Below, piece by piece: positions 45,514-57,133 of a stretch of DNA of 64,000 nt (position 1 is its first letter; every line of letters starts with the position of its first letter). Source of the DNA: Rhodanobacteraceae bacterium (GTDB lineage Bacteria > Pseudomonadota > Gammaproteobacteria > Xanthomonadales > SZUA-5); assembly GCA_031409855.1 (NCBI GenBank), contig JANNYA010000168.1, positions 5,715 through 69,714 on the forward strand, given 5' to 3'. The notes under the pieces were generated by a model. It worked only from the letters and a program-made list of their open reading frames with translations, was not told the DNA's origin and ran no database searches. Position numbers and translations under genes: made by a program.

Positions 45514-45785
45514 GTGCGCAACGAAGTTTGGCGCGTTGATGGCAGCGGAGCGAACGCTTCTGACGGCAATGTTGTGTGGGCACCAACTAAGTCCATTTGG
45601 AACAACTTCATGCTCCTCACTGCGATCTTGCTCGGCCCGCAGTATTTTACATTAGGTGCGTTTTTCGTTTTTCTGGGCTTGAGTTATTTGACGCTCTTGC
45701 TCGGCCACGCGCTCGGGATGCATCGTTGTTTAATCCATAAGTCATTTTCGTGCCCGAAGCCGTTTGAAAGGCTTTTGGTGTGGCA
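45514..45785 (+). pseudogene. 5' fragment of a membrane fatty-acid (acyl-CoA/acyl-lipid type) desaturase gene
   Basis: Two TM helices then LLLGHALGMHRCLIHKSFSCP (first His box). Sense is lost after PFERLLVW, exactly where the DNA turns AT-rich. The matching 3' part lies at about 56690-57133. Confidence 0.7.
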
Positions 45786-46018
45786 AGGCAGCATGCATAA
45801 AAACTGTATGTTCATTTGGTAGTCACAAAAAGTGTTCATAAAATTAAACAGTTGCATCATAAATTTAAAAAGTTATCCATTTTCGTGCCGGTTAAGTGCG
45901 TCTTATAAAGAATTTGTCATAAAATTTGTGTAACCTGTAAATATATGCACGCGTTTAAATTTTGCACTTTGCAATGTGTGTGCGGTCACGCTTGCTAAAT
46001 TTTACAGGGGAGATATTT

Positions 46019-49000
46019 ATGCGCTCATTCGCGCGCGCCGTTGCGGCGTTTCTATTATTGGTTTCGGCAGTTAGCCTGCATGCGCAAAGTTACACGCTAG
46101 GCGCGCCACCGCTCAGTGCCTGCAACGCCTCTGCGCCCGCTGCGTCGGGAAATTACGCATTCAACGCAGGGCGTTGGTATTCGCCGCAGCGCTTAGGCCC
46201 GAGCTGGGATTTTTTCTTTAACGACTTTGGCAATCTGGTCGCAATTTGGTACGGCTTTAATAATCAAGGCCATCCGGTTTGGTACATCTCTGAGGTCAAG
46301 CCGTTGCAAACCGACTCGGACGGCGGTCAACGCTGGCAATCGCGCCTGCATCGTACTTCACAGGTGAACGGTGCACCTTTTTTGAATGAAGCGGTGGGCG
46401 AACTTTACGTACGTATTCCGGCCAATTCGCCGGAAAAGATGGTGGTGAGCTGGAATTTTCTGCCGAATACGAACCTGAACCCGACCGATGTCAATGACGA
46501 CAAGATTGATTGCATCGTACGTCGCGTGGGAGAAGACACCTCCAGTGGTAACCAACGTACAGTCAATACTACCTATAGCGGTTTTTGGTATCCGCCCAGT
46601 AACTCGGGCTGGGGCTACAACGCCTTGGTTGTACCCCCTTCCACTCTGAACAATAACCAGTGGTTCGAGGAAAATACCATCCTCGTGTTTGACACCGTGG
46701 GCCAACCGGCCTGGGGACGTGTTTCTAGATCGACGCTAAGCCGCCCTGATGGTGCCATGACGGTGTTCTCCAGTAGCCAACCAACCGTCAGTTACTTAAC
46801 TTGGAAAACTGCAACCAACGTGAATGGTCGCGTGTTGAATGGCCCGTCTACCAATATAACCACTCCCAATTTAACCTTTGGCCGCAGCTACAGCAGCGCA
46901 AGCTCGGGAAATGTGTATTTGACTTGGAGTCAAATGCTTACCAATCCCACCAACAGTTCGCAGCGCGGTATCAACTTTAATCGTGGCACGCCCAGCACCC
47001 CGTTTGCGGTTGCAAAACTCACGTCTACGTTTGGGATTGTTGCCAACCCTTCCCCCTGCCAGGCGAGCGCCGGGCAAACGACTTGCCAAGTGGAGGTCGA
47101 CTGGGAAGCAGTGGGGGCGGTTTTAGGGCGCACGGGTAGACCCGCGCGGCGCTCAGTCAGCGTTAGCCCGAGTGGTACAGTGACATCAGGCAATTGGACG
47201 CAGTTACCTACAGCTGAGTTTCAGGGCTCGATGATGCAAAGCATTCCAGTCGGTACACGCTGGCAATATGGGATCGTAGACTTCAGTGTTAGTCCACCGT
47301 ATCCACTTTATTTCAGCAGTGAGGTGCGGGCATTGCCGGCGGATGCGGATATTGAAATACCCGATGATCCACGCAGCTCAACCGCCGCAGAATATGCGCA
47401 ACCCAGCGCCCTTGTCGGCGACTTAGCCGGGGCAACACCGATGCAAGCCGATGCTGAAGGCGCTGCTGCCAGCGTCAATATTCCGATCCAAATTCCACCC
47501 GGCCGACGTGGTATGCAGCCAAGCGTGAGCCTTAATTACTCCAGCCGCGCAGGTAATGGCATAGCAGGCATGGGCTTTAGCCTGTCGGCAAGTTCGTCCA
47601 TCTCGCGCTGCCCGCAAAGTCTGGCGACCGATGGTCAAGTCAACGCCGTGCAATTTACCAATGAAGATCGTTTGTGTTTGGACGGTCAACGCTTGATTGC
47701 TACTGTAGAGGGCACTTACGGCTTGGCGAACGCGCAATATAAAACTGAAATCGATAGCTACGTGTTGGTCACTCAGTTGGGCGCGAACTTGTCTGATGAT
47801 GGTGGCATCAAAGGCGCTGTCTATTTTGAAGTGCAAACCAAATCGGGCGAACGCCAGTATTTTGGTGCTGATCAATTGGGTGCCAGCATACGCAATGCGC
47901 GTGTCAAGCCCAGTGGCGCCATGAATGGCGCGCTGAACGGTGCCACCTTGAGTTGGCTGCTGGATACGCGCATAAATCGTTCGGGAAATTACATTCAGTA
48001 CGGTTACACCGTGTTTGGTTCGGGTGAGAATTTGCTGATTGCGATTACTTACACAGGTTTTGGCACTGATGTGGGTAGTCGGCAGGTGCTTTTTACTTAT
48101 GAAAACCGTCCAGATCGTTCCAGTAGTTATTTGGCGGGGGCATTGAATGAGCAAACCCAACGTTTGCTCAACATCCAAACCAAAGCCCCGATCAGTGATG
48201 CCCCCGGTACTGCAGCAGTTGTAGTACGAACCATCACGCCGAGCTATTCGACCTCAAATTACTCAGGCCGTTCAATTATGAATTCGGTGCAAGAGTGTTT
48301 TCCGGGCGGCCAGTGTATGCCCGCGCAAAAGTTTAGTTTTGCCAGTAATCGCGCACCGGAGCTAAACAAAAAACTGAGCATCGGTGGCGTTCCTATCATT
48401 TCAGAAGACCCAACTGCCACAGACTATATATCCAGCTTTAGTGAAATCGGCGATCTTGATGGTGACGGGAGTGTGGAATTTGGTGCCTCTGTGCGCAGAA
48501 CCAATCAATCAAGTTATGGTACTTCGTACTTTTTCAAATCTGACGCCAACACCCGGAGCTTTGGAATGGCTCAACCGGCAATAAGCCTGACCGGTGCCGC
48601 TGCCACGCACTTGCAAGATACACGCGGTGATTTTAATCGTGACGGTATTGCTGATTTGTTGTTAGTCGATAGCGCTGGCGTTCTGCAGGTTAAGTTTGGG
48701 AAGCCCGACGGCACCCTAGAGGCCCAGCAGCCCCTGATACTATCCCCGACTGCGCCGACCCTGCCTGACGCTCGGGTCAGTGATGTAAATGGCGATGGCC
48801 TAAGCGATTTGGTTCTGCAATATCGTCTGAGCAATCAAACTCGCTTGTTGGTATATGTCGCAACTAGCGCGACCAGCTATACCAGGGTCGCGGATCAGAC
48901 GGTCATCAGTGACCCCAACTATCAAGCCAGCATCGTACAAATTGCAGATTTTGATGGTGATTCGGCTTTGGATATCATGTTGGAAGACAGCATTATCAAT

Positions 49001-55310: not shown

Positions 55311-55566
55311 GCGGCTCAAGATGAGACCTGATTAGCGCTAATCGCCAGTACGTCTCATGTAATGCGACGGTTGGACCTTAAAAGTGCTGTAACTTAAGGT
55401 CCTAATGTAATCCCCCAAAACCCACCGAATTTAGAAGTGGAACCTAGAACAGCAAGCTTAAGCTTGCGATACGGATGATAGCGTCAAGATCGCGCAGCGG
55501 CGCAGCGCAATCTTGACGCTGCGTGATTCAATACGCTCTAAGCAGGTCGAATGTCAGCACTGACAT

Positions 55567-56690
55567 TTGATCCTGATCTTGCCTCGCTTTCGCGGGTTGC
55601 CGAAGTTTGCCGAAAACAGCCCGTACGGATGGAGCAACTTTTTTGGAAATCTATTTGGTGGTCGCGGTGAGAATGAAAAGAACGCTGATGAGATGGGCGA
55701 AGGCGACCATTTAGGCGACAACAAATTAGTAGCAGTGCGCGCTGCTTCGAATGCTCGTAAGGCTCTCAACACTGCGGCTGAGGCTGTAAAGGACGTTTAT
55801 GTAGCGGACGTTACCGGGCGGCTAGCTGCTGCAGGGCTAATGTCTATCGGTGGAAAATTATTTCAGGTCGTTGCAGATAAATACGGTCGGTTACGGGCAG
55901 TGCCTTGCAATTGTTTTGTTGCTGGCACGTTAGTTCTCACGGATAACGGACTTGTTCCAATTGAAACTATCAAGGTTGGTGACAAAGTTGCGGCGCGCGA
56001 CGACAAAACGGGCGAGAGCGAATTTCGCGAAGTATTACAATTGTTTGGCAATCCAGACAAAGCCGTTTTGAATGTTGAATTTACGGACGCACTGGGAACG
56101 CGCGAAATCTTTGAGGTAACTGCCGAACACCCGTTTATGACTGAGAACGGGTGGGTAGAAGCATCGAAACTGATGCTTGGGATGCAACTCAAGACTTATG
56201 ATGGTCGTGCATTGAACTTTGTCAATCGTATTGATGAAGGTGTTCATGCCCGGACGTACAACTTTGAAGTGGACGAGTTTCATACTTACTTCGTTGGTAG
56301 GAGTGGAGTATGGGTTCATAATTCCGGTGATTGTTGGAAAATGACGTCGATATTTGGACATGCGTTTCGATATCACGGAAGCGGGAAGAAAATTGCTATG
56401 TCACTCGCTGATACCGCTAGAACAACCGGTACGCCCCAAGGACAATGGATGAACAACGCTGCGGCCGCACAATTAATTAGCTCTCAAGGAATTATCAAAG
56501 GGGTCACTGAGATGAACATTCCCCCTGGACTAAGCGTGAATACCGCAGGCGAAAATATCGCCGAGTTCCAAAATGCGGGCTTCAACCCAAGACTTTCTGT
56601 GTTCAAAGCTTTTCCCAAGGTATTTGTCCAAGCCGCACAGCCAAGATCGACGCACACTGCGGTTGACGCAGTGAAATGTTCCGGCTTGTG
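55567..56690 (+). pseudogene. orphan polymorphic-toxin cassette: pretoxin-HINT domain plus ~120-aa C-terminal toxin domain, no credible start
   Basis: Hint domain CFVAGTLVLTDNGLVPIETIKVGDKV...TAEHPFMTENGWVEASKL...YNFEVDEFHTYFVGRSGVWVHNS (55912-56321), followed by GDCWKMTSIFGHAFRYHGSGKK...GQWMNN. The ORF begins at TTG with no N-terminal trafficking part. Its frame continues to 56859 only by reading the desaturase remnant out of frame. Confidence 0.65.
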
Positions 56691-57133
56691 TTGGATCGAC
56701 GAGTTGGCGGCTGATGGAGCGTACATGGCCACTGCACCAACTACCGCTTGCGCTTTGTTTGTACTATCTCGGCGGCATGGCTTGGGTGGTTTGGGGTATT
56801 TCGGCCAGGATCGCAGTGTCGGTGACAAGCCACTGGGTGGTTACGTACTTCGCCCATAATCCTGAGCCCGGAAAGTGGCGCGTGCTTAGCGCAGGGGTAC
56901 AAGCCTCAAACTTGCCGTGGGTTGCGCTGCTAACCCACGGCGAGTGCTGGCACAACAATCACCACGCGTTTCCAGAATCGGTGCAGCTTGGGCTAGAATT
57001 CGGCCAGTTGGACACAGGCTGGCTGGTGCTTAGACTGCTTAAGAAATTGGGGCTGGTATCTCAACTCGGTGTCCCTCGCGTTGTGGCATCTCGGGATGAT
57101 CTGGTGTTGGAAGCTTCTGGTCACATCAAGTAG
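56690..57133 (+). pseudogene. 3' fragment of the same fatty-acid desaturase gene
   Basis: ERTWPLHQLPLALCLYYLGGMAWVVWGISARIAVSVTSHWVVTYFAHN...LLTHGECWHNNHHAFPESVQLGL (C-terminal His box). An in-frame stop lies at 56672, just upstream. Confidence 0.7.

Follow-up and report, generated by a model that had tools for sequence, protein, structure and literature searches.

A complete Rhs polymorphic-toxin locus lies within, and has partly deleted, a membrane fatty-acid desaturase gene of a Rhodanobacteraceae bacterium

A stretch of 64,000 nucleotides from a Rhodanobacteraceae bacterium (GenBank assembly GCA_031409855.1, contig JANNYA010000168.1, positions 5,715 to 69,714 of the forward strand; hereafter, the window) contains a gene for an acyl-CoA-type membrane fatty-acid desaturase that is split in two by a toxin island. 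The insert occupies positions 45785-56707 (10,923 bp). It represents a complete Rhs polymorphic-toxin locus of canonical layout, in the SpvB/beta-propeller/RHS class, and ends on the right in an antisense fragment of a transposase-like gene, referred to here as X. The desaturase gene lost 212 bp at the same place. Both junctions are homology-independent joins, and the preferred explanation, with a probability of roughly 0.6, is that illegitimate recombination inserted a Rhs-X segment of the same genome or of a close relative.

Interruption of the desaturase gene and the intact site in relatives

The two ends of the desaturase gene flank the insert in the same orientation.

45514-45784, plus strand: desaturase 5' remnant, codons 1-90 plus 1 nt, delimited by alignment to intact homologs.
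56708-57133, plus strand: desaturase 3' remnant, codons 162-302 and the stop codon, with the third His cluster HGECWHNNHH.

The original prediction, made from the sequence alone, had proposed that an island of ~10.9 kb separates two ends of one gene, that these total about 235 aa and are thus shorter than the family, and that a central piece was lost on insertion; all of this was confirmed. When joined, the remnants matched 1,259 proteins at E <= 0.001, the top match being a 302-aa protein (P0001, E = 1.3e-131). The best 120 of these matches were all single polypeptides, almost all of approximately 300 aa and nearly all with the Pfam domain FA_desaturase (PF00487), which the C-terminal piece alone matched at 44.7 bits (cut-off 29.7). 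In the multiple alignment, the remnants corresponded to residues 1-90 and 162-302 of the intact homologs and residues 91-161 were uncovered, leaving 231 of 302 aa.

The 5' remnant carries two transmembrane (TM) helices and the first His cluster (GHALGMHRCLIH). Its homology to L001 and L172 stops at 45784, past which the frame runs into junk, giving a 102-aa open reading frame (ORF; plus strand, 45514-45822). The right-hand fragment, predicted at 56690-57133, belongs to the same enzyme class as claimed, but its homology begins at 56708 rather than 56690; a plus-strand ORF is present there at 56714-57133, and the in-frame stop noted at 56672 was verified. A di-iron site of this kind requires the complete set of His clusters. 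Here, no single polypeptide holds the full set: the first and last clusters are 10.9 kb apart, and the conserved middle His-rich region (…IRIHDIRDW…CHDFFSH) falls within the missing codons. Since codons 91-161 are deleted and the two parts lie 10.9 kb apart, the interrupted gene is a dead pseudogene and no functional member of its family.

Looking for an intact ortholog in related genomes had been proposed as a check. Relatives were reached through cluster mates of the neighboring dihydroorotase-like gene, which led to the contigs L172 (ENA ERZ28654455, 86 kb) and L173. Both are ~90% identical to the window at the nucleotide level and have the order RuvX, PyrR, PyrB, dihydroorotase-like, Gly-zipper, APH (342 aa), FA_desaturase, response regulator (376 aa), a 644-aa protein, DUF4124, YicC, Gmk, and YaeQ, and the window has the same order except for the insert. 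The flanking genes are as follows.

44305-45435, plus strand: left-flank response-regulator gene, 376 aa, Pfam Response_reg; a 376-aa ortholog lies beside the desaturase in L172 and L173.
57168-58196, minus strand: right-flank APH-family phosphotransferase gene, 342 aa, Pfam APH; an ortholog lies beside the desaturase in L172, in L173, and on the P0001 contig.

The desaturase of L172 is intact (302 aa) between these same two genes, and the exact junctions and the deleted segment were defined against it. By blastn, L172rc 5903-7471 corresponded to window 44219-45784 (89.7% identity) and L172rc 7684-9810 to window 56708-58834 (90.9%). Accordingly, the deletion comprises 212 bp, or the 71 codons 91-161 (LGVMVGMAGPFGIIRIHDIRDWAQRETACHDFFSHRRGLMQDAIWQLNCTFCFSNPPRFVLEPRIEADPWY). 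The contig of P0001 showed the same three-gene order and spacers as the window. In L173, the desaturase (4610-5422) was called as 270 aa, not 302. Genome and metagenome scans with P0001 yielded only relatives of <=72% identity in unrelated contexts, the flanks of the loci L001-L003 differ from those of the window, and exact-sequence look-ups of the flanking response-regulator and APH proteins and of the Rhs protein gave no match.

A further check proposed in the original prediction, a look at another assembly, was provided by Logan contig L084 (run SRR20217180). It was 100% identical to window 53864-57254 and crosses both the right junction and the joint between toxin and X; thus, the right junction is not an artefact of one assembler.

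Age of the insertion

Compared with L172, the desaturase remnants had a ratio of nonsynonymous to synonymous substitution rates (dN/dS) of 0.21, against 0.025-0.11 in eleven neighboring genes; the value for the left-flank response-regulator gene was 0.028. With L001 as the outgroup, changes at codon positions 1/2/3 numbered 9/9/10 on the window branch and 5/3/11 on the L172 branch. Moreover, seven residues that are invariant in five intact homologs were changed in the remnants. The remnants have acquired neither a stop codon nor a frameshift so far, for which the estimated probability is ~0.3 given ~28 random substitutions. They drift neutrally as a pseudogene at ~4% divergence, and the flat 9/9/10 profile, which serves as a built-in clock, means that the event was not recent. 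As a separate observation, the synonymous divergence (dS) of the remnants from L172 (45514-45783 plus 56708-57130) was 0.23, about half of the 0.33-0.79 (most 0.40-0.47) of the neighbors, at similar overall nucleotide identity; codon constraint, local recombination, and small-sample noise are candidate reasons.

These substitutions bear on the suspicion that an assembly chimera joined the island into the gene. The source is a draft contig of 79,633 bp and Rhs regions are hard to assemble; however, two matched breakpoints in one gene, in the same orientation and order, the L084 assembly identical across the right and toxin/X joints, and pseudogene-type substitutions that are expected only for a truly broken gene make a chimera barely credible. 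The size of ~11 kb and the location within a coding sequence also resemble programmed intervening elements of the Bacillus subtilis skin or Anabaena nifD type, which are excised to restore the gene. This possibility is negligible and was ruled out by the missing 71 codons (212 bp), which excision cannot restore; furthermore, the island has no recombinase gene and no border repeats, and the remnants evolve neutrally.

Architecture and origin of the Rhs locus

The insert contains the following features.

45785-46018, plus strand: AT-rich leader, the leftmost part of the insert, with a GC of 0.44-0.46.
46019-54805, plus strand: Rhs polymorphic toxin, 2,928 aa, assigned from Pfam and NCBIfam domains.
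54795-55310, plus strand: 171-aa lipoprotein with the lipobox LTGC, in an ORF overlapping the Rhs stop codon.
55480-55520, no strand: hairpin with 20-bp arms, an inverted repeat after the putative immunity gene.
55567-56531, plus strand: orphan toxin module, Pfam PT-HINT 1.8e-28, with homologs P0126 and others.
56532-56708, minus strand: fragment X, homolog of RAYT/IS200-like HUH Y1 transposases, codons ~7-65, truncated at both ends.

The Rhs protein consists of a Sec-type signal peptide (MRSFARAVAAFLLLVSAVSLHA with Q as the next residue, read by eye from the sequence with no tool score), a region of ~480 aa, SpvB, an FG-GAP beta-propeller, TcdB_toxin_midN, RHS repeats, an Rhs-associated core, and a variable tip. 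The Pfam matches were SpvB (4.2e-13), FG-GAP_3 (5.1e-14), TcdB_toxin_midN (4.1e-11), and RHS_repeat (3.3e-13), and the NCBIfam model TIGR03696 (Rhs_assc_core) matched aa 2560-2627 at 55.9 bits (cut-off 32.5). The RHS/YD repeats and the associated core that ends in a DPxG motif (DPTGY at aa 2624, nt 53888) place the protein among Rhs toxins, and the signal peptide, SpvB, and FG-GAP propeller N-terminal to the repeats place it in the TcdB/TcaC class. In such proteins, the C-terminal toxin is enclosed in a cocoon of RHS repeats and is set free when the protein cleaves itself at the core motif. After the signal peptide, aa 1-~480 (window 46019-47460) gave no Pfam match even at E <= 5. Among 5.8 billion proteins, one (P0242) was identical to the Rhs protein and the next best homolog shared 28% identity.

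The variable C-terminal domain (~53900-54802, ~300 residues) carries the motif HEYAH (HExxH) and is probably a metallopeptidase, as judged from this motif; a sub-threshold Peptidase_M78 match (E = 0.022) was the sole family hint. Searches of the toxin tips against family models and Protein Data Bank (PDB) sequences gave nothing meaningful, and the AlphaFold (AF2) model of the main C-terminal toxin had a mean confidence (pLDDT) of 47. In the linker before this domain, a 33-bp tandem duplication (54043-54108, 91% identical) encodes DQLRKSANGAQ and DQRLKSANGAQ.

The 171-aa lipoprotein matched no family. From its position, it is probably the cognate immunity protein, and as a lipoprotein it would protect the periplasm of the producer. 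Together with the HExxH motif, this candidate suggests a metallopeptidase that would act in the periplasm of bacteria. The hairpin that follows folds at -20.3 kcal/mol (z = -2.2) and has no other copy in the window. At the other end of the gene, the leader shows three CATAAA(A/T)TT motifs and a GGGGAG ribosome-binding site, as read from the sequence. Promoter-like sites were no commoner than in shuffles, the terminator scan likewise remained at chance level, and Rfam gave no match over 45300-57300.

The orphan module comprises a linker homologous to other pre-toxin regions, PT-HINT at ~55930-56325, and a toxin domain at ~56332-56531; its start (…NSPYGW) is possibly a relic of an Rhs core end. 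An exhaustive HMMER search with the 129 residues that precede the junction produced two disjoint sets of matches, one to query residues 4-71 and one to 69-129. The former are polymorphic-toxin C-termini with the consensus NWKSVKxFGHTFxxHGxGAKNT…PQGQW…IPxGLGQVIxPDG…TAYPI, and all of them run 30-36 residues further than the window copy and end in …TAYPI. Thus, the orphan toxin breaks off at …IPPGL, ~30 residues short of its end, and is not followed by an immunity gene. As it also has no delivery domain, this truncated toxin is presumably inert. An ending at …AFPKV had been considered as its natural C-terminus and was rejected, the toxin being truncated and the stretch belonging to a gene on the opposite strand. 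The 430-aa ORF at 55567-56859, present in public data as P0121, is a chimera of the orphan toxin, the antisense transposase fragment, and out-of-frame desaturase.

Base composition and codon usage had been proposed as a further check on the island. A switch to AT-rich DNA had been claimed at the end of the 5' fragment (~45783); it begins at 45785 (GC 0.44-0.46). The island is not foreign in composition throughout, its 7.9-kb Rhs core being host-like. When the core (46019-53899) was compared with a pool of 26 host genes, the relative synonymous codon usage (RSCU) correlated at r = 0.97 and the GC content of third codon positions (GC3) was 0.60 versus 0.59; hence, the core was as host-like as the best host genes. 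The corresponding r values were 0.19 for the C-terminal tip, 0.20 for the lipoprotein gene, and 0.44 for the orphan, and GC3 of the tips was 0.41-0.47 overall (C-terminal tip 0.46, lipoprotein gene 0.41). Rhs loci usually combine a stable core with imported tips; here, however, the core is native in style, and only the leader and the 3' tips are AT-rich. Similarity of the Rhs protein to the FG-GAP lipoprotein at 30145-31371, directly after a GGDEF-EAL gene of the window, was considered and rejected as generic FG-GAP similarity.

The surroundings of the island are ordinary chromosomal genes (HrpA, PilY1, gmk, yicC, and pyr genes), and the other large ORFs of the window encode HrpA, PilY1, DUF2339, an OmpA/cadherin protein, and a GGDEF-EAL protein. 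A scan of the larger ORFs of the 64-kb window turned up no TcA, VgrG, or PAAR gene.

A transposase-like fragment at the right end of the insert

The claim that everything between the desaturase ends is toxin cargo did not hold, as the last 177 bp of the insert (56532-56708) are a minus-strand fragment of gene X, 59 codons from the part ahead of the HUH motif. It came to light through the second HMMER set (query 69-129), which consisted of small 'proteins' of odd composition whose variation lay almost entirely at first codon positions (C/G/R, S/G/R, N/H/D). Because first-position variation mirrors third-position wobble on the opposite strand, these matches are the antisense of a real gene. The antisense reading was confirmed on the contigs of four loci (L165, L166, L167, and L169), each of which carries a minus-strand gene X; that of L165 reads MTQPRSQLVDPTQAGTFHCVNRCVRRSWLCGFDKYLGKSFEHRKSWVEARILALGNIFACGIHAWAVMSNHLHIVV…. 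The corresponding 'proteins' (P0284-P0305 and others) have 65-209 aa and are spurious ORFs, read from the strand opposite to the X gene and to the region upstream of it.

Window 56532/4-56711 shared 82-89% nucleotide identity with the X genes of L165, L166, and L167 (89% with L165), and the homology ended at the same two points against all three. In a tblastn search with X residues 7-65, 57/59 positions were identical. An apparent tblastn extension of X to 56299 was spurious, with stops and ~19% identity, and an antisense ORF searched by tblastn against plasmids gave no match. A composite full-length X matched NCBIfam REP_Tyr_transpos at E = 1.3e-10 and 41.3 bits, below the cut-off of 80, and Pfam Y1_Tnp at E ~2e-3 and 17-19 bits, below the cut-off of 23; the window fragment alone matched no family, and PDB searches with the fragment and its relatives gave nothing meaningful. 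On replicons of Vibrio, Shewanella, and Pseudoalteromonas, homologs of 37-43% identity bear the annotation 'transposase'. Taken together, these matches support a relation of X to RAYT/Y1 HUH transposases at the superfamily level, and not equivalog membership.

With …ACGIHA as its last residues, the window copy stops one residue short of the region that in L165 reads WAVMSNHLHIVV; both the HUH motif and the catalytic tyrosine are absent from the window copy. Truncated on both sides to 59 codons and devoid of the catalytic motifs, the fragment in its present state cannot have moved the island.

The wider occurrence of X was examined at six loci, in three of which (the window, L165, and L166) it abuts RHS-repeat or Rhs-toxin DNA, with differing RHS sequences and geometries. 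In L165, X is 3'-truncated at codon ~137 and abuts an RHS-repeat fragment in the same convergent arrangement as in the window. That contig also carries a GGDEF-EAL gene with 83% nucleotide and 91% amino-acid identity to window 28848-30160; thus, L165 comes from a relative, and the adjacency of X and RHS there indicates that a Rhs-X neighborhood was once present in this lineage. The L165 block (1327-2625) lies directly after the GGDEF-EAL ortholog, where synteny with the window breaks, and consists of 1,272 bp bracketed by a 27-bp direct repeat (26/27 identical). It holds the RHS-repeat fragment, the truncated X gene, and a 92-aa membrane ORF, and the 27-bp repeat consists of the 3' end of a Porin_O_P gene (…ELRAQIML*) that is truncated.

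Elsewhere, in L166 (1046-1997), the start of an RHS-repeat ORF is separated from the start codon of X by 80 bp, and a DDE_Tnp_1 insertion sequence (IS) interrupts X. In L169 (3-1282), a partial X (codons 1-~66, the cut point of the window copy) stands in tandem before a full-length X, and in L167 (whole contig), X is a pseudogene beside the C-terminus of a serine recombinase. Family X is often decayed. The more distant homologs on plasmids do not adjoin Rhs genes.

An active role of X was therefore considered, namely that a RAYT-like X belongs to a lineage-specific mechanism that captures or relocates Rhs cassettes with neither terminal repeats nor target duplications. The RHS adjacency at 3/6 loci, the cut at codon ~66 shared by the window and L169, and the 27-bp repeat of L165 hint at it. 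Given that the distant homologs have no Rhs neighbors and the window fragment has no catalytic motifs, such a role was assigned a low weight and is highly unlikely.

Junctions and mode of insertion

The order at the right end is truncated toxin, 59 antisense X codons, and desaturase codon 162. With the slash marking the breakpoint, X (…GAGTTGGC/TGCGG…) and desaturase (…GGTAC/CGGCTGATGG…) share a single C. The toxin/X joint (56531/56532), 177 bp from the right junction, shares at most 1-2 nt. Longer microhomologies at the X/desaturase joint (GGCTG and CGGCTGA) were tried and would give a sequence other than the one observed. No direct or inverted repeats bracket the insert, no target duplication was seen, and no second copy of any insert-end sequence occurs in the window. 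The only tRNA gene of the window, found by a tRNA scan, is a Ser gene at 8356, 37 kb away, and no window ORF scanned contained an integrase, recombinase, or transposase domain. The original prediction was thus borne out as to the absence of an integrase, a tRNA, and flanking direct repeats, but not as to that of a transposase, since a 59-codon remnant of a transposase family was hidden in antisense.

Neither of the usual classes of element fits this picture. An integrase-type island would be accompanied by a tRNA or gene-3'-end target, a recombinase, and att repeats, none of which is present; the target is mid-gene and lost 212 bp. For an IS or composite transposon, there are no terminal inverted repeats, and the transposase-family sequence is confined to a 59-codon internal fragment. 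The junctions are homology-independent joins.

According to the preferred reading, a segment from a Rhs locus that already adjoined an X gene would have entered a break in the desaturase gene through homology-independent (illegitimate) recombination or end joining, and no site-specific or transpositional machinery would have taken part. The host-like codon usage of the core and the 89% identity of X to L165 support a donor in the same genome or lineage or in a near relative; in addition, the event is far too young for the codon usage of the core to be the outcome of amelioration.

Several points weigh against this reading. In bacteria, an 11-kb piece is seldom joined bluntly at both ends by illegitimate recombination, and a multi-step history of insertion followed by deletions would leave the same picture. 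The independent assembly covers the right junction only, not the left. No donor locus was found; the Rhs protein had no relative above 28% identity among the 5.8 billion proteins, which leaves codon usage and the X fragment as the arguments for the same lineage. Moreover, the toxin and immunity roles and the expression of the locus are putative, the toxin domains matching no family or solved structure.

The eroded right end, in which the toxin lacks ~30 residues and its immunity gene, the transposase-family gene is reduced to 59 codons, and the junctions are 177 bp apart, would also fit a conventional mobile element that brought the Rhs locus and later lost its mobility gene(s), the orphan toxin end with the immunity gene, and 212 bp of the desaturase by deletion. 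HUH Y1 elements generally make no terminal inverted repeats or target duplications, which agrees with their absence here; X adjoins RHS-repeat DNA at two more loci (L165 and L166), and the L165 block is flanked by the 27-bp repeat. Nevertheless, the X fragment, which has neither the HUH nor the Tyr motif, faces away from the outer end of the cargo, RAYT-type genes are in general single-copy and domesticated rather than carriers of cargo, and the more distant plasmid homologs are not beside Rhs genes. As the left junction also bears no trace of an element end and no second end copy exists in the window, this history is considered unlikely, if arguable.

The host-like core would also suit an intragenomic move of a native Rhs locus with no incoming DNA, in which a tandem duplication fused X, beside that locus, to desaturase codon 162 and a deletion then joined codon 90 to the Rhs leader. 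The position of X and an RHS fragment in L165, near the ortholog of the GGDEF-EAL gene at 28848-30160, places a Rhs-X locus once in this neighborhood, and both junctions are homology-free like the joints of duplications and deletions. However, two independent illegitimate events would be needed in the right order, the 64-kb window has no second Rhs or X copy, and L172 is otherwise perfectly colinear over 26 kb, with nothing lost from the window as such a deletion would entail. This course of events is distinctly unlikely, and insertion of a Rhs-X segment by illegitimate recombination remains the preferred explanation.

Comparison with known systems

In papers of the Hill laboratory and of Jackson et al. 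in 2009, composite Rhs loci of Escherichia coli and Salmonella are said to consist of a core ORF, an AT-rich core extension, a small downstream ORF, orphan tips, and defective H-rpt IS copies. The window locus resembles these elements in its large core ending in DPxG, the abrupt shift of composition at the variable tip, the small immunity-type ORF overlapping the stop codon, and the displaced orphan tip downstream. It also shares with them a decayed transposase-family remnant in the 3' array, and presence or absence between relatives with borders free of repeats. Unlike the E. coli cores, which are markedly more GC-rich than the genome, the window core has host codon usage (r = 0.97). Other differences from E. 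coli Rhs are the N-terminus, a signal peptide with SpvB and FG-GAP in place of a PAAR/VgrG link; the IS relic, which is HUH/RAYT-like and not ISAs1 (H-rpt); and the location of the locus inside a housekeeping-type gene that it has destroyed.

The TcdB/TcaC polymorphic-toxin class has been described as having a signal peptide, SpvB, an integrin-like propeller, RHS, an optional HINT, and a variable tip (Zhang et al. 2012, PMC3482391). The domain order of the window protein is exactly that of this class, to which the TcB-TcC cocoons are likewise comparable. Unlike Tc (ABC) complexes, the window has no TcA-like translocator among the larger ORFs scanned, and B and C form one polypeptide; unlike TcdB/TcaC, the protein has a ~480-aa N-terminal region that matches no family, and its nearest homolog shares 28% identity. 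The lipoprotein immunity candidate suggests a bacterial rather than an insect target.

As to its borders, the insert resembles double illegitimate or homology-facilitated insertions after uptake, since a segment replaces a short recipient stretch, with 0-1 nt of microhomology at the junctions and neither a duplication nor element ends. Unlike homology-facilitated insertions, there is no visible homologous anchor on either side, and the segment is apparently of the same lineage. Full-length relatives of X share with RAYT and IS200-IS605 proteins an HUH-type motif (SNHLHIVV) and a C-terminal …YVDLNP(V/I)RA; unlike these, X scores below both curated cut-offs and, with ~320 aa, is twice as large as TnpA of IS200.

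That an islet can disrupt a gene by way of illegitimate recombination is already well known, and nothing here overturns current understanding. The locus is nonetheless a clean, bracketed case with an empty site, in which a complete interbacterial-toxin locus reached another chromosomal position and killed a lipid-metabolism gene; on the preferred reading, it did so with no dedicated mobility function and shows that Rhs loci are able to spread within a lineage by illegitimate recombination. Two annotation traps were also exposed, namely the 430-aa chimeric 'protein' and a whole family of public protein entries that are spurious antisense readings. The divergent Rhs toxin (28% to the nearest homolog), with its N-terminal region, tip, and putative immunity protein, could interest those who mine for new toxin domains.

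Other observations in the window

Palindromes resembling repetitive extragenic palindromes (REP), of the form ATTCCCGCG-NN-CGCGGGAAT, occur at 45461-45480, 7932-7951, and 8056-8075. Four matches on two strands were counted against 0.01 expected, and one palindrome falls in the spacer that immediately precedes the start of the desaturase gene.

A second window-specific insertion of 953 bp is present at 43266-44218, where L172 and L173 have only 40 bp. It lies directly after the terminator of a 647-aa gene, has normal GC and no mobility gene, and holds a minus-strand ORF of 266 aa (43359-44159) with two N-terminal TM helices and no Pfam match.

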